A stretch of DNA of 64,000 bases from Candidatus Latescibacterota bacterium (GCA_965226795.1 CBDDDZ010000005.1:1312001-1376000), one strand, 5' to 3'. Counted from the first letter of the stretch, positions 47,610 to 60,951 are shown. Notes: generated by a model from the letters alone, not told the origin. Made by a program: numbers and translations.

Positions 47610-47798
47610 AGGAGTGCTCCTGTTGAATACACGCCAATTCCGTTGTGGGCAGAAAGTCGTATGCCTCGTGGGCGCCTGCCGGAATCGCGCCTTTTAATAT
47701 ATCTCATGAGACCCCGCGATCAACAGATAAATCGCTTGACTTTCGTAAGGCATTGTGCATATTGTCCGTAAGTGAAACAGTTATAAGGAGTTGGTCAC

Positions 47799-48497
47799 AT
47801 GACTATACTCTTTTTCCTCCTGTTTGCGGTCTTGCTGATTGTTCTGCCACCGGTCCGTCTGTCGGCGCATGGCCATTGCGGCGAAGGGCGGGAACCGGCG
47901 CTGGAAATACGTTTAAGGCCGTGGATCGGGCTGGCGGGTATCCGGCTTTTCCACGCTGACGGCGGTTGGCGTGTAGGCGTTCTTTTGGGGTGGTGGACAG
48001 TGTGGGCAACGGCGTTGACGAGGGGCGAGGATCGGAAGGAACAACGGGGCGCCAGGAAAAGTGTCAAGAAGAAAACGGATTTACCGGACGGGTTCCGGAC
48101 AGCGGTCGAACGGTTGGAGCGCGCCGGGCTCTATTTCAAGAGACTGTGGTTGCCTCTGCGACGGTCTGCGTCGCAATTTTATAACGGGTTCCGTCTACGC
48201 CGCATTTCATGCAAGGTCGCTTTCGGCGCATCCGATCCGGCCACGACCGGGCAGATCTTCGGATACTTCGTGGCGGCCTCGTCATTAATAGGGACAGGAG
48301 GACGCGTTGAGGCGACGCCCGATTTCAAGCGGCAGCGCCTGGATGGCGAAGCCAAGGTGGAAATCTGGATTTATCCACACCGGCTATTGTGCGCGTCTGT
48401 GTACATTGCGTGGCGCGTTGGGCTTGCATGGTTTTCCGAGCGACGCAACCGGAAACGCCTGCGGGAGGGCGTCTTTCGGGCTGGCACAACGAGTTGA
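47799..48497 (+). CDS. DUF2953 (YtfI-like) membrane-anchored protein
   Basis: N-terminal TM segment and FGASDPATTGQIFG...TPDF motif. Adjacent to ytfJ. Confidence 0.72.
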   Translation: MTILFFLLFAVLLIVLPPVRLSAHGHCGEGREPALEIRLRPWIGLAGIRLFHADGGWRVGVLLGWWTVWATALTRGEDRKEQRGARKSVKKKTDLPDGFRTAVERLERAGLYFKRLWLPLRRSASQFYNGFRLRRISCKVAFGASDPATTGQIFGYFVAASSLIGTGGRVEATPDFKRQRLDGEAKVEIWIYPHRLLCASVYIAWRVGLAWFSERRNRKRLREGVFRAGTTS

Positions 48498-48517
48498 GCG
48501 GGGTTTGAGGAGGCGTT

Positions 48518-48919
48518 ATGTCTGTTGAAGATCTCATCAAGACGGTGATGACGGAATTCCGTCAAATGGTAAAGACGGAGACCGTTGTGGGCGAACCGAT
48601 CGAGATAGGTGGGACGGTTGTCGTGCCGGTGTCCAGGATTTCCTTCGGGTTCGGCGCGGGCGGGGGCGCGGACAAGACGGATGGTGGCGGGAGCGGTACC
48701 GGGGGAGGAGCTTCTGTGGAACCGTTGGCATTTGTTGTGATTCGAGACGGGAAAACACAGATTCTCCCCGTACAGGAGAAAGAAGGATCCATTAAAGGGT
48801 TGTTGGATCTGGCACCGGACCTTCTGGCGAAGGTGAAAGCGTTCAAGGAGAAGAGAGACAGGAAGAGGGCCGAGGCGGAAGCCGAGCCAGGTTCCGGTGA
48901 TGACGACGTGAGCGCATAG
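48518..48919 (+). CDS. ytfJ: YtfJ/GerW-family protein
   Basis: TETVVGEPI...VPVSRISFGFGAGGG...GGGASVEPLAFVVI. Confidence 0.88.
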   Translation: MSVEDLIKTVMTEFRQMVKTETVVGEPIEIGGTVVVPVSRISFGFGAGGGADKTDGGGSGTGGGASVEPLAFVVIRDGKTQILPVQEKEGSIKGLLDLAPDLLAKVKAFKEKRDRKRAEAEAEPGSGDDDVSA

Positions 48920-48931
48920 GCCGGGGCGGCC

Positions 48932-50161
48932 ATGAACCGGCTTCTGCTTCTAATTCCGACAACGACCTATCGCACTCACGACTTTATGGCAGCGGCGTCG
49001 ACGCTCGACGTATCCGTGGTCGTGGGATCCGACCGCCGCCAGGCGCTGGCGAGTCAGACACCGGGAAGTACACTGGCGCTGGATTTCACGGAGCCCGCAG
49101 CCTCGGTCGAGAAGATTGTCGGTTTTTCAAAGGCGTACCCCATCCAGTCGGTCGTGGGAGTGGACGATGAGACCGTCGTGCTCGCCGCGATGGCCTGCAT
49201 GGCACTCGGACTTCCGCACAATTCGGTGACGTCGGCCCGGGCGTCCCGGTACAAACACGTGATGCGTCAGATGCTTGCTGAAAAAGGCCTGCCCTCGCCG
49301 GGGTTCAGGCTTTTTTCAATTTCGGACGAACCGGAAACCGCCGCCGCGATGGTCGACTATCCGTGCGTACTGAAGCCCGTGTTTCTGTCCGCCAGCCGCG
49401 GTGTGATCCGGGCAAATGAAGAAGCGGATTTCGTGACCGCGTTCGACCGGATTCTGCGGTTGATTTCGGAATCTGCACGTGGCGCGCCCGAAGGTGGAGA
49501 TTGTATTCTGGTGGAGGACTACATTCCTGGCCGGGAGGTGGCGCTGGAGGGATTGCTGGTTGAGGGTGAGTTGCAGACGCTCGCCCTTTTCGACAAACCG
49601 GATCCGCTCCATGGCCCTTATTTTGCCGAGACGCTGTACATAACGCCCTCCCGGCTGTCGGAATGCCTGCAGGCGCAAGTCCGTGAGACTGCGCAGAAGG
49701 CCGCGCGCGCGCTGGGGTTAAGCGTGGGGCCCGTACATGCCGAGCTCCGGCTGAACACGCGTGGCATCTACGTGGTGGAAATCGCCGCGCGGTCCATCGG
49801 CGGGCTGTGTTCGCGGGTATTGCGCTTTGGCGCCGGCATGTCGCTGGAGGAACTGATTCTGCGCCAGGCAACCGGTTACGCTCCCGGAAATTTTCGGAGG
49901 GAAAACACCGCGACTGGCGTAATGATGCTGCCGGTGTCGAAGCCGGGAATACTGCAATGCGTGCGGGGGATGGCACGCGCACGTCGCGTGCCTGGAATTA
50001 TTGACGTCGCGATAACCCTACCTACGGGTCAGCCCGTACAACCGCTGCCTGAGGGAGACCGGTATCTGGGGTTCATTTTCGCCCGCAATAAGACATCCGA
50101 GGCGGTGGAAGCTGCGCTTCGCGAGGCAAACCGACAACTCGGAGTTGTGATTGAGGGATGA
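48932..50161 (+). CDS. ATP-grasp domain protein (L-amino-acid ligase-like)
   Basis: YPCVLKP...SASRGV, LVEDYIPGREVALEG, GPVHAELR and EIAARSIGG motifs. Confidence 0.87.
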   Translation: MNRLLLLIPTTTYRTHDFMAAASTLDVSVVVGSDRRQALASQTPGSTLALDFTEPAASVEKIVGFSKAYPIQSVVGVDDETVVLAAMACMALGLPHNSVTSARASRYKHVMRQMLAEKGLPSPGFRLFSISDEPETAAAMVDYPCVLKPVFLSASRGVIRANEEADFVTAFDRILRLISESARGAPEGGDCILVEDYIPGREVALEGLLVEGELQTLALFDKPDPLHGPYFAETLYITPSRLSECLQAQVRETAQKAARALGLSVGPVHAELRLNTRGIYVVEIAARSIGGLCSRVLRFGAGMSLEELILRQATGYAPGNFRRENTATGVMMLPVSKPGILQCVRGMARARRVPGIIDVAITLPTGQPVQPLPEGDRYLGFIFARNKTSEAVEAALREANRQLGVVIEG

Positions 50162-50232
50162 GAAAGGGGCAATCAGTCCGGGGGGACCCTGGACGGTGTG
50201 TCCGGATCATTTTTTCTTCGAGGTTCTTTCGA

Positions 50233-51660
50233 TTAGACAAGAGCGAACTGCTCTTCGGTTGGTTCCGCTCAGCAATACCACGGCTCGGTGAGGCGGGGAA
50301 GGGATTGGCGGTTCGAGTCAATTCCTGAATCGAACTCTGGGGCCGGGCGGCCCAACAGGTGGTGGACGTACGACTGGATTCTATGGAAAATTTCTCGTCG
50401 GCTGGTGTCTTGATTCTGAAGCCGGGTGACCAACCGGGTGAGTTCGTGTTGGAGCCGATCCAACCGGACATCCGGATGTGCCCACGGATATGACAGGGTT
50501 TCGGGTGCGAAGGTTTCCACCAGGTCCCGAATCTCGGCAAGGCCCAGGAGTCTTGAGCCTTTGGGGATGAGCAGCCGTATCGTGAGCTGTACGGGAGAGA
50601 CGTTCTCGATCAGGTCAAGGCCCGCGAGGGTGTCCAGAAAGCCGGCATAGTGCTCCATGGTGACCCAGGGCGTGAACGGGATGAACGTCGGATTCATGAC
50701 GAGTTCGTGTCGTCGGAAGAGATGCACGACTTCGATGAAGTCGTCGACTGTATGGCCCTTGTCCAACCGCGCGAGGACCCGGTCGTCGAGGGACTCCACG
50801 GCGGTCGTGACAATCGCGCACCCGGTATCTTTGAGGAGGGGCAGATAACGGCTATACCCTAGCAGATGTTCGATTTTGACGGTGATATCGTAGGTGACAT
50901 CGGGAAATTTTTCGTGGAGCCTTGTCAAAACTGGTATGGCGTGGCCGATACCGTTGAAGAAGTCGGGATCACCAAACGTGATGTGGCCGGCCCCCGCGGC
51001 GACCTGTTTCGCAATGTCGTCCAGCACGGTCTCCGGTTGCACAATACGGAATCTGCCCCTGTACACGGGCACCACGGGACAATGGCGGCAGAGATGTTTG
51101 CAACCTCGGCTGGCCTCCGTATAGCCGACGGTTGTGAGATGGCCGTCCTCTGTGGATAGTTGCGCGTATCGGGAGAGGTCCGGCAGGCCTGTCCGGTCGG
51201 GCGGAAGAAACCGCTGCCTGGCCAGGGAAACGACGGGCTCTTCCTGGTCTGGGGTGGCGCTCGAGGCCCCTCGCAGGCGCCTGCAGAGTTGAAGCAGTCC
51301 GTTTTCGAATTCTCCGCCGAGAATGGTCTGGGCGCCCACGCTTCGCAGGAAGGATTCGTTCACGGATGCATAGAGCCCATAGAAACAGAGGTGGGCGTTG
51401 GCATTCTGTTCGCGGGTTCTTAAGGCAAGCGGTACGGCAAGTCGCGTTGCCGTGTGCATTGGCACGTAGAATGCCACCAGATCGGCGTCCCGAACGGCCT
51501 CTTCAGGAAAATCGTCTATTGAAACGTCAGCCAGGACAACGTCGAAGCCCGCCCTCCGCAACCATCCGGCCGGCGAGGCCAAACCGAATGGCTGACGACC
51601 CAATTCGTAGGTGGATACGAGCACGACTTTGAATGGACGCAATGGGGAGATGGTAGGCAT
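50233..51660 (-). CDS. CUAEP-tail radical SAM selenoprotein (B12-binding-like N-domain + radical SAM; in-frame TGA at 50271-50269 read as Sec)
   Basis: CKHLCRHC (CxxxCxxC). The tail reads TGG TAT TGC TGA GCG GAA CCA ACC GAA GAG CAG TTC GCT CTT GTC TAA = W-Y-C-U-A-E-P-T-E-E-Q-F-A-L-V-stop, giving 475 aa. Confidence 0.85.
50239..50255 (-). promoter_or_regulatory. Putative bacterial SECIS hairpin
   Basis: On the minus strand, 13 nt after the TGA: stem AAGAGC, loop AGTTC (G at position 2), stem GCTCTT. The loop lies 19 nt from the UGA. Confidence 0.65.
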
Positions 51661-51735: not shown

Positions 51736-52320
51736 TTATTTTGAGGATTGGTAGTACGGGTTCGTGCCACCCGCGTGTTCGGTCACGTCGAGGATCTCTT
51801 CAATTTCGGGCACGGCCTCCTTGATGAGGACTTCGACACCCTGTTTGAGCGTGACATCCACCATGCCGCAACCCTGGCATCCTCCACCGAACTGGATGTA
51901 CGCTCTATTGTCCTTTACGTCGATCAACGAAATATGACCACCGTGCGAGGCAACGCTGGGGTTGATCTTCTCGTCGATAATGTTCTGGATCTTCTCTGCA
52001 GTGGTGCCTTTCAGATGCGAGGGAACCTTGTTGGGATTCTCTATCTTGAAACCTCGGCCCATCAGGCTGTCCACATAGTCCAGAATAATGTCCTCGGCAT
52101 ACGGGGCGCTTTCCTGGTCGACGTAGATATTGAACCCGTCGAACGGCGTGACGACGTCGTCTTCTTCTTCCTGCCCGTCGGCGATAAAGGCGAGTCGGTA
52201 GCTGGCCTGCAGAGGCGATACCGCCTCTGCTTTGACACGAACGCCAACGATGGCCGATTCCTGGTTCCTGATAAGGTTGACGACCTCCTTCTTCGCGGCT
52301 TCGGTTACGGTGATGTTCAT
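51736..52320 (-). CDS. nfuA: NfuA-type Fe-S cluster carrier
   Basis: Cys-free A-type N-domain (ITVTEAA...GFKIENPN) plus NifU-C domain INPSVASHGG...GGGCQGC. Confidence 0.88.
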   Translation of the reverse strand: MNITVTEAAKKEVVNLIRNQESAIVGVRVKAEAVSPLQASYRLAFIADGQEEEDDVVTPFDGFNIYVDQESAPYAEDIILDYVDSLMGRGFKIENPNKVPSHLKGTTAEKIQNIIDEKINPSVASHGGHISLIDVKDNRAYIQFGGGCQGCGMVDVTLKQGVEVLIKEAVPEIEEILDVTEHAGGTNPYYQSSK

Positions 52321-52360
52321 ATCGACCTTCCCCTTAGAGAGGTGTACTTTGCCAGGGCGG

Positions 52361-52855
52361 TCAGGACTCAAGCGCCACTGTCGGTCTTGCAGGATGTTCG
52401 CGGTCTATTTTCTCCTGGATTTTCATCAGCGCGAACAACAGGTCTTCAGGCCGGGGCGGGCAGCCGGGCACGTAGATATCCACCGGCAAGAACTGATCGA
52501 CGCCCTGAACCAGCGTATACGTATTGAAAACGCCTCCGGACGATGCGCAGGCACCCATCGAAATCACCCACTTCGGATCCGGCATCTGATCGTAGATCTT
52601 CTTGAGAACCGGCATCATCTTGATCGAAATTCGACCTGATACAATGAGCAAGTCGGACTGCCGTGGCGAGAACCGCACAGCTTCCGCGCCGAAGCGAGCC
52701 ATGTCGAAGCGTCCGGAAAGCGTGGCCATCATTTCGATGGCGCAGCAAGCCGTGCCGAATGGCATTGGCCAGAGGGATGACTTGCGCGCCCAGTTAATCA
52801 TTTTGGACAGAGTGGTTGTGAAAACGTTATCGCCAAGGCCCGTCTCAAGTCCCAT
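52361..52855 (-). CDS. nuoB: Second, stand-alone NuoB-family Fe-S protein within the SUF operon
   Basis: [30 protein letters not shown] and [10 protein letters not shown] motifs. Confidence 0.9.
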
Positions 52856-52961
52856 TGATCACCTCTGACAGAAGGGTTGGAAACGTCACGTGAGTTGTCC
52901 GTCGCCGGCGGAGAGTCCCCGACGAACCTTCGGGTTGGCACAACCCGCCCGCGGCGTTTTG

Positions 52962-53441
52962 CTAACCCGAAACCTGAATCAGCTCGTCCGTCACGTTCTG
53001 CAAACAGGCATCCATGGACTGTTCTTCTCCCAGCAGATCATTCAGTGTAACACGGCTCAGAATCTGGTCAATCATGGACTGTACCGAGGTCCACAGCGAA
53101 CGTATCGAACAGTCTACCGAGTGCGTACATAGTGCTTCCTGGCCGGCGTGTTCCTCGCAGAATTCTGGAGTGAACAGACGACCGCCGAGCGCGGACAGTA
53201 CGTCGCCAACCACAATCAGGTCAGCGGATTGCGCGAGTCTGTACCCTCCGGCCTGACCTCGAAGGCTTTCCACGTATCCCCCCAGCCGCAGAAGACGCAT
53301 CAGCTTGGCGACATTGGGGGCTGAGAGGCCTTCAATCTGGCTGATCTCAGATATGGAGAGGCTCCCGCCGGTTTCTTTCTGCCTCCGGCCTATCTGAAGC
53401 AGGCACCGCAGCCCGTATTCTTCCCCGGCGCTCAATTTCAT
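52962..53441 (-). CDS. Rrf2-family (IscR-like) transcriptional regulator
   Basis: EEYGLRCL, VESLRGQAGGYRLA and three Cys in FCEEHAGQEALCTHSVDC. Confidence 0.88.
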   Translation of the reverse strand: MKLSAGEEYGLRCLLQIGRRQKETGGSLSISEISQIEGLSAPNVAKLMRLLRLGGYVESLRGQAGGYRLAQSADLIVVGDVLSALGGRLFTPEFCEEHAGQEALCTHSVDCSIRSLWTSVQSMIDQILSRVTLNDLLGEEQSMDACLQNVTDELIQVSG

Positions 53442-53575
53442 GGCTCTATAGCTTTCATGGATGGGTTGGAAGACCGATTTAATCCATAGGGCTCCACGGA
53501 TCCGGAAAGAACGCGTCGTCGGCCCCCGCGACCGCGACGTGTAGGGGGGGGGTGTGGCGCGGCTTCGGGAGCCGC

Positions 53576-54085
53576 CTAAAGCAGTCCGAGCTCCAGTCTT
53601 GCGGCTTCGGACATCATCTCCGGGTTCCACGGCGGATCGAAGGTCAGATCCAGGCTGACGTCTCGTACACCGGAAACCGATCGGGTGGCGCTTTCAACTT
53701 GCCCGGGCAAGATACCCGCGGCCGGACAGGCGGGGGAGGTCAGGGTCATCTGGAGGTAGGTCATCCCGGTGGGTTCGACCTTGATTTCGTAAATGAGGCC
53801 GATGTCGTAAATGTTGACCGGAATTTCCGGGTCGAAGACCGTGCGATGGGCCGCGATAATGTTCTCCCTGACGACTTCGGTGTCTATCGGATCGTCGGAC
53901 TCGGCCGCGGTCTCGCCCGCTTCGGCCATCTCTTGCTTTTCTTCCTGGCGTCTGGCGGTGTGCGCTTCCAGCGCGCTGGTGTCGACGGGATTCACCTCGT
54001 CTGCCGCGTTGGTATTCGACTCGTCGTTTGGTGGCGAATCGCCTTCTTCGTTCCTGTACAGTCGGTTCAGCAGTCGTTGGAGCAC
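53576..54085 (-). CDS. sufT: DUF59/SufT-like Fe-S assembly protein with acidic N-terminal extension
   Basis: VFDPEIPVNIYDIGLIY, MTLTSPACP and FDPPWNPEMMSEAARLELG. GTG start follows GGGAG. Confidence 0.85.
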   Translation of the reverse strand: MLQRLLNRLYRNEEGDSPPNDESNTNAADEVNPVDTSALEAHTARRQEEKQEMAEAGETAAESDDPIDTEVVRENIIAAHRTVFDPEIPVNIYDIGLIYEIKVEPTGMTYLQMTLTSPACPAAGILPGQVESATRSVSGVRDVSLDLTFDPPWNPEMMSEAARLELGLL

Positions 54086-54108
54086 GATGGATTTCTCCCG
54101 ATGGAAGC

Positions 54109-54564
54109 CTACTCGGTGGTTACCGGCAATTCGCGGATTTCGAGTGCAGCCACGAGGGTGTGCCATGCCAGGGTTGCGCATTTGATGCGCACCGGAAACT
54201 CTCTCACGCCTGCAAAAACTGCCAGTTTGCCGATACCGTCGGTGACGGGTTCGTTCGAAACGTCGCTGGTGACCAGGTCGCGGAACTTTCCGAAGAGCGA
54301 TTGGGCTTCCTGAAGGGTCCGTCCCTTGACCGCGTCGGTCATCAGAGACGCCGACGCTTTGAAGATGGCACATCCGGCACCCTGAAACGCGATATCTTCA
54401 ATGTGGTCGCCGTCGAGTTTGACGAAGAGGTTCAAATGATCGCCACACAACGGGTTGTACCCTGCGGACGTTCGATCCGCGCCGGTCATGGACCGGTAGT
54501 TGCGCGGACTCCGGTTGTGGTCCAGAATGACTTGTTGGTAGAGTTCACGGAGATCGGACATCAT
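54109..54564 (-). CDS. sufU: SUF system NifU-family protein SufU
   Basis: LYQQVILDH, NPLCGD, GCAIFKASAS and RIKCATLAW motifs. Confidence 0.92.
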   Translation of the reverse strand: MMSDLRELYQQVILDHNRSPRNYRSMTGADRTSAGYNPLCGDHLNLFVKLDGDHIEDIAFQGAGCAIFKASASLMTDAVKGRTLQEAQSLFGKFRDLVTSDVSNEPVTDGIGKLAVFAGVREFPVRIKCATLAWHTLVAALEIRELPVTTE

Positions 54565-55841
54565 CGGAAGACCTCATTGGTCGTGTGCAACGCCCGTACA
54601 AGCGTGTCGATGTCTTCCCGCGTATTGTAAAACGCAGTCGCCGCCCGGGTCGTCGCCGAAATGTTGAAGTGCCGCATGACAGGTTGGGCGCAATGGTGTC
54701 CAGCACGTACTGCCACGCCTTGCTGATCGACGATGGTGCCGACGTCATGGGGGTGTACACCGTCCATAACGAAGGAGACGACGCTGATTTTCTCTTCAGC
54801 TGTTCCAATGATTCTCAACCCTGGTATCTCGGAAAGGGCGTCCGTCGCATAGGCCAGCAGGTCGTTCTCGTAAGCCGCGGCCGCTTCCAGGTCGATCCGG
54901 TTCAAATAGTCGATGGCAGCGCCCAGGCCGATACAACCGGCAATATGGGGTGTGCCGGCCTCGAAGCGGGCGGGTGGATCGGCATAGGTAGTTTTTTCGA
55001 GCGAAACTTCACGAATCATGCCGCCCCCGCCCTTGTAGGGCGGCATCGATTCAAGCAGTTCACTTCTCCCGTAAAGAACCCCGATGCCGGTCGGACCGTA
55101 TAGCTTGTGCCCCGAAAAGGCGTAGAAGTCGCATCCGAGCGCCTGTACGTCCACTTTGAAATGGGGGACCGCCTGTGCCCCATCCAGGAGAACGGGGATA
55201 CCGCGATCATGTGCCAGTTCCACGATTTCGGCGACCGGATTGAGGGTGCCAAGGACGTTCGACACGTGTACGACAGCCACAAGTTTCGTACGCTCATTCA
55301 GCCGTCTTTCAACCTCGTCGATCTGGAAATCGCCCCGGTCACAAATGGGTATAACCCGCAATCGTGCACCTTTTTCCTCGCAGAGCATCTGCCACGGAAC
55401 GATGTTTGAGTGGTGTTCCATGGTGGAAACGAGGATTTCGTCGCCGGCTTCCACGCATTTGCGTCCAAATGTCTGGGCGACCAGATTGATGCTGTCCGTC
55501 GTGCCGCTGGTGAAGATGATTTCCCGGTCGTGGGCCGCGTTCAGAAACTGGCGGACCTTGCTGCGTGCCCCTTCGTAGGAATCCGTTGCAAGCTGGCTGA
55601 GAAGATGAACCCCGCGATGTACGTTGGCATTGGCCGTTTCGTAAAAGACTTCAAGGACGTCCAGTACGTCCCTGGGCTTCTGGGTTGTCGCGGCGTTGTC
55701 GAGGTAGACCAGCGGATGGCCCCGAATGGATTGGCCTAGAACCGGAAAATCCCGACGGATACGGTAAGGATCGAAAGGCCCCGCGCGTTCGATGAGCGGG
55801 CAGGCAAGCCGTTCGGCCAGGGTATGTGCTGTTAGGCTCAT
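54561..55841 (-). CDS. sufS: SufS cysteine desulfurase
   Basis: YLDNAATTQKP, SGHKLYGPTG and RAGHHCAQP motifs. ATGA overlap with sufD. Confidence 0.95.
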   Translation of the reverse strand: MSLTAHTLAERLACPLIERAGPFDPYRIRRDFPVLGQSIRGHPLVYLDNAATTQKPRDVLDVLEVFYETANANVHRGVHLLSQLATDSYEGARSKVRQFLNAAHDREIIFTSGTTDSINLVAQTFGRKCVEAGDEILVSTMEHHSNIVPWQMLCEEKGARLRVIPICDRGDFQIDEVERRLNERTKLVAVVHVSNVLGTLNPVAEIVELAHDRGIPVLLDGAQAVPHFKVDVQALGCDFYAFSGHKLYGPTGIGVLYGRSELLESMPPYKGGGGMIREVSLEKTTYADPPARFEAGTPHIAGCIGLGAAIDYLNRIDLEAAAAYENDLLAYATDALSEIPGLRIIGTAEEKISVVSFVMDGVHPHDVGTIVDQQGVAVRAGHHCAQPVMRHFNISATTRAATAFYNTREDIDTLVRALHTTNEVFR

Positions 55842-57163
55842 GGCATGTTTCCGGCGTTTTGCGCCTGTTCGAATCTGTCCATTACAATACGTTCGAGATA
55901 GTCCCGAACGGAATCGGGTTTGATTCTGTTCAGGATGTCGACCGCGAATGCATGTACAAGGATGCGCTGTGCGGTTGCGTGACTCAACCCGCGAGAGCGC
56001 AGGTAAAAGACCGCGTTCTGATCGAGTTGCCCAATTGTTGCGCCGTGGGAGCACTTGACCTGATCGGCGTAGATTTCGAGTTGGGGTTTGGTATTGATAC
56101 CGGCGCCGTCCGAAATGAGCAGGCTCTGGTTGCTCTGATAGGCGTCGGTCTCCTGGGCTTTCCGGTGGACGTGAATCTTGCCGCGAAAGACGCCGCTGGA
56201 CCTGCCCCCGAGAATTCCCTTGTAGAGTTCGTGGCTGCTGCAATTCGGCTCGGCGTGTTCGATCAGGGTATGGTTGTCGATATGCTGCTCGTTGTCGGTC
56301 AGATAGAAGCCGTTGACCGTGGCTTCACCGGCTTCACCGGCCAGCAACACGTTGACTTCGTTGCGCACCAGTTTGCCGCCCAGAGAAATGGCGTGCGTGG
56401 ACAGATTGCTCCCGGCACCCAAACGGCTTTGCATCGTGGCGATATGAAACGCCTCGGGGCTCTCCAGTTCCAGCTTGTAGTGATCCACCACCGTACGGTC
56501 GTCGGCGATGACTTCGGTCACCGCGTTTGAGAAATAGGCGCCGCCGCCGGTATAGGTTTCGACTACCGTGGCCTGGCTGTCTTCTTCAGCCAGGACAAGC
56601 GTGCGGGGGTGTGAAATGGAAGGACCGCCTGAAGGGATTGAAATAAACAAGATGTGAATGGGAGATTCGACAGCCGTGCCCCGTGGGATATATACACAGG
56701 CACCATCCTGCAGAAATGCGGTGTTGAGCGCGACGAAGGCGTGCTCTTCGTACGCCGCGTGTCGCGCGATATGGGTTTCCACCCATTCGGGTTCGGAGGC
56801 CATCAATTCGGACAGACTGCACACCCGCACGCCGTGTGGGAGGTTCCCCGTGCGGGAATATTCGGCACTGTAGAAGCCGTTGACGAAAACCAGGCGCGTG
56901 GCTGCCAGTTCCTGGATGGCATCTTCCGTTTTCCAGACCCGACGTACATCTGCCGCCGTTGTTGTGCGAAACGATGTACGGACAAGCGGTGCAACATTTG
57001 TGTGAAACCACGCTTCGTCCCTCGTCCCCGGAAACCCGAGTTCCGCGAATCGTCCGATTGCAGACTTGCGGAGTGCGTGCAACGGCGTGGCGGACCGTCC
57101 GTTCAGGCTCTCTTCAAAGATGGCAAATGCGGAAAGATAGGCGTGTGTGCCTTTGTTCACCAT
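55838..57163 (-). CDS. sufD: Fe-S cluster assembly protein SufD
   Basis: FVALNTAF, KPQLEIYADQVKCSHGATIG and FYLRSRG motifs. Confidence 0.93.
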   Translation of the reverse strand: MVNKGTHAYLSAFAIFEESLNGRSATPLHALRKSAIGRFAELGFPGTRDEAWFHTNVAPLVRTSFRTTTAADVRRVWKTEDAIQELAATRLVFVNGFYSAEYSRTGNLPHGVRVCSLSELMASEPEWVETHIARHAAYEEHAFVALNTAFLQDGACVYIPRGTAVESPIHILFISIPSGGPSISHPRTLVLAEEDSQATVVETYTGGGAYFSNAVTEVIADDRTVVDHYKLELESPEAFHIATMQSRLGAGSNLSTHAISLGGKLVRNEVNVLLAGEAGEATVNGFYLTDNEQHIDNHTLIEHAEPNCSSHELYKGILGGRSSGVFRGKIHVHRKAQETDAYQSNQSLLISDGAGINTKPQLEIYADQVKCSHGATIGQLDQNAVFYLRSRGLSHATAQRILVHAFAVDILNRIKPDSVRDYLERIVMDRFEQAQNAGNMP

Positions 57164-57179
57164 GGTGCGACAACCTCCT

Positions 57180-57953
57180 TTAAGCACGGGCGAATCTGGC
57201 TGTAGACTCTTCGCGAATCCAATCGTAGCCTTCCGCTTCCAGCTTCTGGGCGAGTTCAATTCCACCGGATTTGACAATCCGGCCCTTGAGAAGAACATGC
57301 ACGGCGTCCGGCACGATGTAGTCTAGCAGCCGCTGGTAGTGGGTGACCACAAGAACCGCGCTCCCGGGGTTTTTCTGGTGAAGCGTGTTCACACCGTTGG
57401 CCACGATCTTCAGGGCGTCGATATCCAAGCCGGAGTCCGTTTCGTCCATAATGGCCAGCCTGGGTTCGAGCATTGCCATCTGGAATATTTCATTTCGTTT
57501 TTTTTCGCCGCCGGAAAAGCCTTCGTTGACCGCCCGATTGAGAAAAGTCGGGTCCATTTCCACTAGTTTGAGCTTTTCCTTGGAAAGAGCGAGAAAGTCC
57601 ATCGCATCGAGTGTACCCTGTCCGCGTACTTTTCGAAGTTCATTGAGCGCAGTCCGGAGAAAATAGGCGCTATTGACGCCGGGAATTTCCACCGGGTACT
57701 GAAAAGCCATGAAAACGCCGGCCTGGGCGCGTTCTTCCGGGTTCAACTCCAACAGGTCTTCGCCTTCGTAGAGAATCTCGCCCCGCGTCACTTCGTATTC
57801 TTCCCGACCGGCCAATACCTGGGCAAGGGTGCTTTTTCCGGATCCATTGGGACCCATAATAGCGTGGATTTCGCCAGCGTTGATTTTCAGGTCGATGCCG
57901 GAAAGGATGCCGGTTCCGTCGACGCTTGCGTGGAGGTCGTTGATTTCGAGCAT
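57180..57953 (-). CDS. sufC: Fe-S cluster assembly ATPase SufC
   Basis: [29 protein letters not shown] and THYQRLL motifs. Confidence 0.96.
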
Positions 57954-58091
57954 GTGTGTTCCTTTTTGTAAACTGCCCTTGTTGCAGCCGTGAGGCGCTG
58001 CCTGACGGGGCGTTTTCTTAGGCCTTCAGCGACGCCTTCGATGGGTTTGCAGATCCTCTCTACGTCGCCTGGGCGCGTTTCCCCTTGCGCT

Positions 58092-59558
58092 TTATCCCAC
58101 GCTGCCTTCCAGGCTGATGCCAAGCAACTTCTGCGCTTCGACGGCGAATTCCATAGGGAGTTCGGCCAGCACTTCCCTGCAGAAGCCGTTGACGATCATG
58201 GAGACGGCGTCTTCGGTGGAGATGCCGCGCTGGTTGCAGTAGAAAATTTGATCTTCACCGATTTTTGACGTGGAGGCTTCGTGCTCTACCTGAGAAGATG
58301 TGTTTCTCACGTCGATGTACGGGAAGGTGTGAGCCCCGCAACGGTCGCCGATGAGCATGGAGTCGCATTGGGTGAAGTTTCGGGCGTTCGTTGCGCCTTT
58401 TAGAACCTGAACCCGGCCCCGATAGGTATTCTGACCGTTCTTGGCGGAGATGCCTTTCGAAATGATGGTGCTGCGCGTGTTCTTACCCAGATGTATCATT
58501 TTCGTGCCTGTATCGGCCTGTTGGCGCCCGCTGGTTACGGCCACGGAGTAGAATTCGCCGATGGAGTTGTCGCCTTGGAGAATGCAACTGGGATACTTCC
58601 AGGTGATGGCAGATCCGGTTTCAACCTGGGTCCAGGAGATTTTGGCGTTGGCGCCTCGGCAGGCCCCGCGTTTGGTGACAAAGTTGTAGATCCCGCCAAC
58701 ACCGTTTTCGTCTCCCGGATACCAGTTTTGAACGGTCGAGTATTTGATCTGCGCATTGTCGAGGGCAACCAGTTCCACGACGGCGGCATGGAGCTGATTC
58801 TCGTCCCTCTTGGGGGCCGTGCAACCTTCGAGATACGATACGTACGCCCCGTCTTCGGCGACGATCAGCGTCCTCTCGAACTGGCCTGTATTGGCTGCGT
58901 TGATGCGGAAGTACGTGGACAGTTCCATGGGGCACCGCACACCCCGGGGGATGTAGCAGAAGGAGCCGTCCGTAAAGACCGCGGAGTTGAGAGCGGCGAA
59001 GAAATTGTCATTGTAGGGCACGACCGAACCGAGGTATTTCTTCACCAGGTCGGGGTGTTCCTGTACGGCTTCCGAGAACGAGCAGAAAATGATGCCCAGG
59101 TCAGCCAGCTTGTCCTTAAACGTCGTTGCCACGGAAACGCTGTCGAAAACGGCGTCGACCGCCACGCCGGCAAGTATCTTCTGCTCTAAGAGAGGGATGC
59201 CCAATTTCTCATACGTACTCAGGATTTCAGGGTCAACCTCGTCGAGGCTCTGGAGCGAGTCCTGTTTTTTGGGTGCGGAGTAATAGATGATTTTCTGATA
59301 GTCAATGTCCGGATAGTCGACCATGGCCCACTGGCGGCTTCGTTTGCGGCGGGTCGGATCGTCCATTTTGAGCCAGTTGCGATAGGCCTTGAGGCGCCAC
59401 TGCAACAGCCAGTCGGGTTCGCTTTTCTTCTCGGAAATAAACGCGATAATATCTTCATTCAGACCAGGGGGCGCTTCGTCCGTCTCGATATCGGTTATGA
59501 ACCCGTATTTATACTCTCCGGTTGCCAGTTCTTCAATTTCCTGCAATTGTTCGCTCAT
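58092..59558 (-). CDS. sufB: Fe-S cluster assembly protein SufB
   Basis: [28 protein letters not shown] and [10 protein letters not shown] motifs. Confidence 0.96.
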
Positions 59559-59643
59559 CGGGCGCTCCATATATCGCATGAAAGGGCATTGGTTTTGTTG
59601 TTGTCTGTGCGACGCGACGATAACGTTTCCTGAATTCAAGCTT

Positions 59644-59672
59644 AACATACCCAATCCGTAACCACGTGTCAA
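59644..59672 (-). promoter_or_regulatory. Putative sigma70 promoter of the suf operon
   Basis: TTGACA-17 nt-TATGTT on the minus strand, about 85 nt upstream of sufB. Confidence 0.6.
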
Positions 59673-60465: not shown

Positions 60466-60951
60466 ATGGGAAAGCTCACGGGTCGTTTCCAGGATAACGT
60501 CATTGTGACGTCGGTCGATTATTTCGTCAATTGGGCGCGGCTGTCCTCACTCTGGCCGATGACGTTCGGATTGGCGTGTTGCGCCATAGAAATGATGGCC
60601 ACGGGGGCATCGCGGTACGATTGGTCGCGGTTGGGCATGGTCCCGCGCGCTACGCCCCGTCAGTCCGATCTGATGATTGTGGCTGGCACGGTTACCCTGA
60701 AAATGGCCACCCGCGTGAAGAAATTGTACGACCAGATGGCTGAGCCCAGGTACGTGATGTCCATGGGCTGCTGCGCCACGTCCGGCGGCCCGTACTGGCA
60801 GCACGGATACCATGTATTGAAGGGTGTCGACCGGGTTGTACCGGTTGATGTGTATGTCCCGGGCTGCCCTCCGAGACCGGAGGCCTTGCTGGAGGGCGTA
60901 CTGAAGCTGCAGGACAAGATCCGCATCGATTCCATCGCGAAAGTGAGTTGA
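60466..60951 (+). CDS. nuoB: NADH-quinone oxidoreductase subunit B
   Basis: [16 protein letters not shown] and VPGCPPRPE motifs. Confidence 0.95.

Follow-up and report, generated by a model that had tools for sequence, protein, structure and literature searches.

A conserved pairing of a CUAEP-tail radical SAM selenoprotein with an ATP-grasp ligase in Candidatus Latescibacterota, probably ArsL-like in its chemistry and probably not arsenic-directed

The 64,000-nucleotide stretch analysed here (the window; Candidatus Latescibacterota bacterium, GCA_965226795.1 CBDDDZ010000005.1:1312001-1376000) carries at positions 48,932 to 51,660 two converging genes, one for a radical S-adenosylmethionine (SAM) enzyme and one for an ATP-grasp ligase. 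Sequence comparison identifies the pair as a real, conserved two-enzyme unit; the radical SAM family has already been named (NF040546), and its partner and context were not found in print. The chemistry of this module is probably ArsL-like, but probably not that of arsenic. Its features are the following:

50233..51660, - strand: CUAEP-tail radical SAM selenoprotein, 475 aa with selenocysteine (Sec) at 464, from UGA read-through and NF040546 score
51079..51102, - strand: CxxxCxxC [4Fe-4S] motif (C187, C191, C194), invariant in 111/111 aligned sequences
50269..50274, - strand: Cys463-Sec464 pair (TGC TGA), with C463 in 111/111 aligned sequences
50239..50255, - strand: bacterial Sec insertion sequence (SECIS)-like hairpin, 6-bp stem and a 5-nt loop whose position 2 is G, from fold and comparative pairing
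48932..50161, + strand: L-amino-acid-ligase-type ATP-grasp enzyme, 409 aa, with Pfam ATPgrasp_N, ATP-grasp_4 and LAL_C2 domains
49808..49810, + strand: ligase Cys293, in the loop after conserved Arg287, Cys in 141/141 homologues

Under translation table 11 the open reading frame of the radical SAM gene (51660-50269, - strand) ends at a TGA after 463 aa. When this TGA is read as Sec, the protein continues to the C-terminus ...EPWYC-U-AEPTEEQFALV and a TAA stop at 50235-50233, leaving a gap of 71 nt (50162-50232) to the ligase, in agreement with the roughly 70 nt given in a preliminary description of this DNA. Neighbourhoods were fetched for 214 loci, 212 of them scorable for the Sec/Cys codon, with some genomes represented twice and many related. 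The codon after C463 is TGA in 134 of the scored loci and Cys (TGC/TGT) in 78, and a 6-bp hairpin lying 14-30 nt 3' of the codon is completely paired in 82/134 TGA loci versus 1/78 Cys loci. Pairing is maintained by compensatory changes in the TGA loci and lost in the Cys loci, and position 2 of the loop is G in 134/134 TGA loci. Taken alone, the hairpin of the window is modest (z of -2.5 for a 27-nt piece, between -0.6 and -0.8 with longer ones). The genome of the window holds selA, selB, selD and tRNA-Sec. With a UGA aligned to Cys in homologues, a SECIS hairpin and selA/B/C/D in the genome, the gene thus bears the marks of a bacterial selenoprotein, and the comparative support for Sec decoding is strong. 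The annotated CUAEP protein on a Thermomicrobium roseum plasmid (L114:6947-8383) stops at WFC, apparently truncated at the UGA, and most database homologues likewise end there.

The radical SAM enzyme scores 586.9 bits against NF040546 (602.6 with read-through), above the curated cut-off of 500, and carries the C-U/C-A-E-P tail near its C-terminus; it is a full-length member of this CUAEP/CCAEP-tail (seleno)protein family with a CU tail, and no difference from the family was seen. The family was called uncharacterized by Haft and Gwadz (bioRxiv 2022.07.06.499078, partial text). At least 8000 scored candidates pass E 1e-20, a set that may include more distant relatives, and the enzyme occurs in ~11-19% of the sampled genomes of three phyla, usually as a selenoprotein. 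Judged by family scores, ArsL is by far the nearest relative that has been characterised (286 vs 47 bits for the next): the ArsL family NF040542 scores 286.2 bits, below its cut-off of 450, and any other NCBIfam family at most 46.9 bits.

The kinship to ArsL proposed in the preliminary description is borne out by further comparisons. Identity to three RCCLKC (ArsL-type) proteins is 33-35%, the four motifs named in that description are all present and align with ArsL counterparts, and a quick tree (45 CUAEP-type, 4 ArsL and 4 outgroup rows, the outgroup branches being long) unites ArsL and CUAEP proteins in one clade against four canonical-type radical SAM enzymes with an SH-aLRT of 97. This tree puts ArsL beside one long-branch CCAEP sequence, and a nested position of ArsL within the CUAEP/CCAEP family is possible. 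A PTFxxFxPW strand and an AxES/F motif are common to ArsL and the CUAEP enzyme, at places where the four canonical-type relatives have GxPGE-type and GIES-type motifs. Both enzymes have a two-domain layout, the core motifs and a vicinal Cys-type pair at the C-terminus. Unlike ArsL, with the three cysteines of its RCCLKC tail, the window enzyme ends in a CU-AEP tail (YCUAEP) with two ligands and no third Cys, has ~45 more residues ahead of this tail, and has iron-sulfur (Fe-S) helper neighbours in place of an ars context.

The fold used here is an AF2 model built from the alignment, with a predicted local distance difference test (pLDDT) of 95.9 overall and 89-92 in the tail blocks; a single-sequence fold reached a pLDDT of 46.6. 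A PDB sequence search with the radical SAM protein gave no match, and the nearest solved folds by Foldseek are AprD4, TsrM, MgmA, OxsB and MiaB, at 13-18% identity. AprD4, TsrM and MiaB have a Rossmann-like N-domain and radical SAM barrel in common with the window enzyme, but differ in chemistry and lack the Cys-Sec tail. The B12-binding domain PF02310 scores 23.5 bits, below the Pfam cut-off of 32.1, which leaves the enzyme outside class B; a precomputed PF02310 match is present in some homologues. These solved folds speak for an alternative in which the protein belongs to the canonical radical SAM enzymes that generate 5'-deoxyadenosine (5'-dA), such as a sulfur inserter or a rearranging enzyme, with the Cys-Sec pair serving as redox centre or binding a metal, and the ligase working before or after it on an amino acid. 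So do H69, H193 and H303, which are conserved in CUAEP-type enzymes and replaced by other residues in ArsL. The fold matches are, however, far less similar in sequence than ArsL, which also falls in the same clade, and the extra cysteines that might hold an auxiliary cluster do not form a conserved set (C92 in 70/111 aligned sequences, C281 in 89/111). Canonical chemistry is considered unlikely.

The ligase has the domain architecture and catalytic ExAAR loop of the L-amino-acid ligases (LALs) BL00235, BacD and RizA, from which it is distant and from which it differs by an invariant Cys in the substrate loop. Its closest solved relative is 3vot, the BL00235 ligase (E 3e-34), and it reaches no NCBIfam family cut-off; an ESM Atlas search returned only unnamed ATP-grasp and DUF169 clusters. 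K108, K148, E195, E271, E283 and R287 are each at least 95% conserved. When aligned with solved relatives, including 3wo1, the W332A mutant structure of BacD, Cys293 lies two residues past the position of BacD Trp332. That tryptophan is a substrate-pocket residue, and BL00235 products include Met-Gly and Met-Met (PMC6920838, partial text). The window ligase is of a subfamily that is dedicated to radical SAM enzymes of the CUAEP/CCAEP type.

Across 603 genomes of three phyla the radical SAM gene is present in 88, the ligase gene in 93 and both in 83. Co-occurrence is near-obligate (83/88 radical SAM genomes, 83/93 ligase genomes), in keeping with the conserved linkage to an ATP-grasp subfamily that had been anticipated. 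In the phylum of the window the same 29 of 151 genomes have both genes, within 4 kb of each other in 26. The corresponding numbers of radical SAM, ligase and joint occurrences are 31, 35 and 30 in Acidobacteriota (n = 201) and 28, 29 and 24 in Actinomycetota (n = 251); in the latter, one of the genomes with the radical SAM gene alone has a weak match of 110 bits. The profile includes unpublished genomes, namely two with ligase only (G178, G443), one double (G475) and a negative control (G356). Fisher values overstate the significance because kin are not independent, although the pattern still recurs in three phyla and several gene orders.

At the level of loci, the ligase gene was found in 43 of the best 80 GTDB loci and 47 of 80 metagenome loci, many of which are shortened by contig ends. 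In 37 of the 43 linked GTDB loci it is co-oriented with the radical SAM gene, so the convergent layout first described is true of the window and is not a conserved feature; in some loci (L046, L145) an NfuA gene sits between the two. Three genomes without a ligase near the radical SAM gene were checked, and two carry it elsewhere while Nonomuraea does not. In a hand-chosen panel of 42 carriers and 38 non-carriers, SelD is equally common on both sides (37/42 versus 34/38), and the co-occurrence is therefore not explained by Sec capacity. The reading of the two genes as chance neighbours with unrelated functions can point to their convergence in the window and their separation in some genomes (e.g., G056, G153, G154), but their mutual co-occurrence across three phyla and in several gene orders largely refutes it, and it is hardly credible.

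A metalloid substrate for the Cys-Sec tail had also been proposed, and here the genome comparisons lead away from arsenic. The absence of arsM and ars efflux genes recorded in the preliminary description holds, with no ArsM, ArsB, ArsI, ArsN or Acr3 match in the window and no Acr3, ArsB or ArsM match in its genome. Over the 214 loci (2.1 Mb), ArsB, Acr3, ArsC, ArsH, ArsI, ArsN1, ArsQ and ArsR occur in 0, one weak ArsM-like match was seen, and ars genes, regulators and exporters do not recur. In contrast, all four ArsL loci read lie among ars genes; no such cluster with ArsM and an exporter surrounds the window enzyme. Acr3 was found in 4/42 carriers versus 12/38 non-carriers and ArsM over its cut-off in 12/42 versus 19/38. 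On these comparisons arsenic is not supported as the substrate. Many of the below-cut-off ArsM-like matches have one in-frame TGA (e.g., G269, G221, G176, G157, G209, G233), and these proteins are possibly a selenoprotein methyltransferase family.

A metalloid acceptor, in line with the preliminary description, would involve 3-amino-3-carboxypropyl (ACP) transfer to trivalent As or Sb bound by the two tail ligands, for example from methylarsenite to arsinothricin without ArsM, followed by peptide ligation. Relevant to this is an ArsL tail mutant named 'MCCA', which, going by its name, presumably keeps two adjacent cysteines. It was the best catalyst with methylarsenate, and methylated As(III) species are ArsL substrates (PMC13598754, partial text); CU motifs have been proposed as heavy-metal contacts (bioRxiv 2022.07.06.499078, partial text). 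MerB-like genes in three loci, the ligases of ArsL clusters, and the depletion of Acr3 among carriers, which could mean substitution, also speak for it, as does an ArsS gene (TIGR04167, 460.6 bits, above 300) convergent with an ArsC-like gene ~110 kb from the module in the genome of the window (G000:C5:1472390-1473941, L227). The ars-free neighbourhoods, the genome without Acr3, ArsB or ArsM, and the report that single Cys-to-Ala ArsL variants are inactive (cited in bioRxiv 2026.04.29.721666, partial text) weigh on the other side, and this route is regarded as rather unlikely.

ArsL itself also appears alongside ligases. ArsL-family genes were found on 36 plasmid records and a LAL-type ligase on 34, with matching genus tallies (30 of 37 rows are listed individually and the tallies cover all). 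Adjacency was verified in three annotated clusters, all among ars genes, on plasmids of Priestia (L115:3178-8275), Alicyclobacillus (L116:3145-8299) and Pantoea (L224:6430-11173); a fourth cluster, from Pseudomonas, has no ligase. These Bacillales and Pantoea clusters resemble the window module in combining a radical SAM enzyme with a LAL-type ligase, but they contain ArsM (2 of 3 read) together with a transporter and further ars genes, and also a small CMD-like protein. Two of their ligases were compared and Cys293 was not found; because identity between the ArsL-linked ligases and the window ligase is no more than 24-25%, the pairing with a ligase probably arose twice. The clusters parallel, and lend support to, the logic suggested in the preliminary description, in which an unusual amino acid is made and then ligated. 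The plasmid clusters predict an arsinothricin-containing peptide, and no paper on ArsL with ATP-grasp plasmid clusters was found in the literature.

A different cluster type is seen in Nonomuraea (L041:8129-16576) and two metagenome loci (L144; L194:81-10804), in which the radical SAM gene accompanies genes for a keto-acid-type methyltransferase, a pyridoxal phosphate-dependent aminotransferase, DUF169 and one or two MerB-like proteins each. L041 and L194 additionally carry a 2-oxoglutarate dioxygenase; in L041 a GCS2 ligase replaces the ATP-grasp enzyme, and L194 also has AurF-like, dTMP-kinase-like and dehydrogenase genes. The MerB-like protein has a close homologue in Nonomuraea candida. 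The Nonomuraea-type cluster is rare, the radical SAM gene being present at all in 2/251 genomes of that class. These tailoring enzymes are consistent with an amino-acid product.

The module is flanked in the window by the following genes:

51736..52371, - strand: NfuA-like Fe-S carrier with Fe-S_biosyn and NifU domains, directly upstream of the radical SAM gene and co-oriented
52361..59672, - strand: sufB/C/D/S/U/T-like genes with an Rrf2 regulator and a nuoB-like gene, all co-oriented with nfuA and the radical SAM gene and lying upstream of them
47799..48919, + strand: DUF2953 and YtfJ/GerW-like genes, located upstream of the ligase gene; neighbours particular to the lineage and not core

The Rrf2 and NuoB assignments come from NCBIfam, and the suf gene names in 52361..59672 are putative, assigned by sequence inspection. 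Two nuoB-like genes are present in the window, one in the suf-nfuA run (52361-52855, -) and one in a nuo operon (60466-60951, +). Within 2.5 kb of the radical SAM gene, a YggX-like gene is found in 69 of the 214 loci, an NfuA-like gene in 44, both in 0 and neither in 101, a split that partly follows lineage; YggX, going by its NCBIfam name, has a role in Fe-S protection. The NfuA-like protein of the window scores 161 bits against TIGR03341, below the cut-off of 269, and its gene is likely an accessory member of the module. In E. coli, NfuA regenerates the cluster of a radical SAM enzyme, and it is known to partner the sulfur inserter LipA (PMC9585516, partial text), which also lends something to the canonical alternative above. 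An aconitase gene occurs in 60/214 loci and a DUF169 gene in 30/214. No dedicated transporter or resistance gene and no sel genes recur in the neighbourhoods.

YggX, absent from the genome of the window, was rejected as an obligatory partner. DUF169 was rejected as an obligatory third member and is optional, occurring in 22/42 carriers versus 6/38 non-carriers; module-linked DUF169 proteins keep four cysteines and are mostly of a lower-scoring subtype. Literature on DUF169 and on tRNA deacylases proved uninformative. The DUF169 gene of the window's genome (G000:C4:623435-624163, L226) is unlinked to the module and lies upstream of a chlorite-dismutase-domain gene.

The frequency of YggX, NfuA and aconitase genes and the lack of a recurring transporter or resistance gene would suit a pair that acts on a protein target, such as one with an Fe-S cluster or one of iron trafficking, instead of making a free metabolite, and Dph2 is an earlier example of an enzyme that passes ACP to a protein (bioRxiv 2024.02.01.577332). 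This is improbable, since the ligase has LAL architecture and characterised LAL members join free amino acids, and no neighbour is universal.

The reading preferred here takes its chemistry from ArsL, which cleaves SAM to methylthioadenosine (MTA) and forms an Fe-ACP species; its tail cysteines bind As(III), a tail-bound nucleophile is proposed to attack the Fe-ACP species, and dithionite leads to the C-S product homocysteine sulfinate (bioRxiv 2024.02.01.577332; bioRxiv 2026.04.29.721666, partial text). ArsL is the only CxxxCxxC radical SAM enzyme described as making an ACP radical (bioRxiv 2024.02.01.577332). In the module, the radical SAM enzyme would cleave the C-gamma-S bond of SAM to MTA and Fe-bound or radical ACP, and the ACP group would pass to a thiophilic acceptor held on C463/U464, one that is sulfur-based (a persulfide or sulfur oxyanion) rather than arsenic. 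The ATP-grasp enzyme would then form an amide, with Cys293 contacting the sulfur-bearing substrate, and NfuA or YggX would maintain the radical SAM cluster. ACP chemistry by the radical SAM enzyme is probable on kinship, and ligation of a small molecule by the ATP-grasp enzyme can be expected with somewhat greater assurance. Given both, a sulfur acceptor is modestly favoured; it is the likeliest because there is no arsenic context, carriers of the Cys form can do without selenophosphate, the genes nearby handle Fe-S clusters and sulfur, and the ligase retains its substrate-loop cysteine. The complete sequence of ArsL-like ACP transfer to a tail-bound sulfur species and ligation into a small peptide is offered tentatively.

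Selenium as the acceptor, from which a selenohomocysteine-type amino acid and a seleno-peptide would result, is suggested by the Sec tail and the SelD of most carriers. SelD is, however, as common in non-carriers, five carriers have no SelD match (four of these with the Cys form), and sel genes do not recur beside the module, all of which makes a selenium product very improbable.

Several observations weigh against ACP transfer to sulfur followed by ligation. SAM is bound canonically by ArsL (bioRxiv 2026.04.29.721666, partial text) and the ArsL literature examined gave no residue that decides between ACP and 5'-dA cleavage, so kinship cannot prove ACP chemistry. The tail is unlike that of ArsL in ligand number and in the extra residues ahead of it, and the ArsL-linked ligases are parallels, not orthologues. 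Plain sulfide is weakened as an acceptor because homocysteine has ordinary routes and was below quantification in the ArsL assay (bioRxiv 2026.04.29.721666, partial text). Nonomuraea (G152) has the radical SAM gene without a ligase orthologue, and the MerB-like neighbours of L041, L144 and L194 speak for a metal(loid) in clusters of this kind, a prospect to be kept in play. Because of kinship and partial duplication among the loci and genomes, the counts overstate independence. On a possible replacement of the known thiol buffers glutathione, bacillithiol or mycothiol, GshB and BshC were found in 0/5 genomes (3 carriers, 2 non-carriers) and MshC exceeded its cut-off in 0/23 carriers and 2/20 non-carriers; MshC-like matches of 370-430 bits were seen in 7 of the carriers and 2 of the non-carriers.

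The radical SAM-ligase pair likely makes a widespread, undescribed small peptide. More speculatively, it may represent a housekeeping-like pathway of soil and marine bacteria in which a Cys-Sec arm and ArsL-type cleavage yield a C-S (or C-metalloid) amino acid within a cytoplasmic peptide tied to Fe-S upkeep, with ArsL and arsinothricin as an arsenic-specialised offshoot of what is, in the CUAEP/CCAEP enzymes, a far larger sister family. No description of the pair was found in the literature covered, which did not extend to subscription ArsL papers (Li et al. 2025, ACS Catal) and preprint supplements. Searches on CUAEP, CCAEP, NF040546 and RCCLKC gave one relevant mention, as uncharacterized, in bioRxiv 2022.07.06.499078, in whose partial text the terms 'ATP-grasp' and 'ArsL' are absent and partner genes and the ArsL link are undescribed. 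Nothing relevant was found on arsinothricin with an ATP-grasp or dipeptide ligase, nor, among the matches listed, on ACP with radical SAM and selenocysteine. The obligate ligase partner and the missing arsenic context turn an orphan family into a two-enzyme assay, through which a second class of substrates for ACP radical chemistry, a function of Sec within a radical SAM enzyme and a common undescribed metabolite could come to light.

Some minor observations concern expression and the lineage-specific genes. Promoter and terminator scans were at chance level. Contigs from RNA libraries of three studies (4/21 listed runs) cover the radical SAM and ligase genes, which indicates presence in RNA libraries only. 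The YtfJ-like gene recurs in 9 loci only, all close relatives. RNA contigs of three runs start within ~25 nt of the DUF2953 start (window 47790-47811), and a promoter-like site lies upstream of these contig starts at 47736-47765; there is a weak hint of a DUF2953-ytfJ-ligase transcript.

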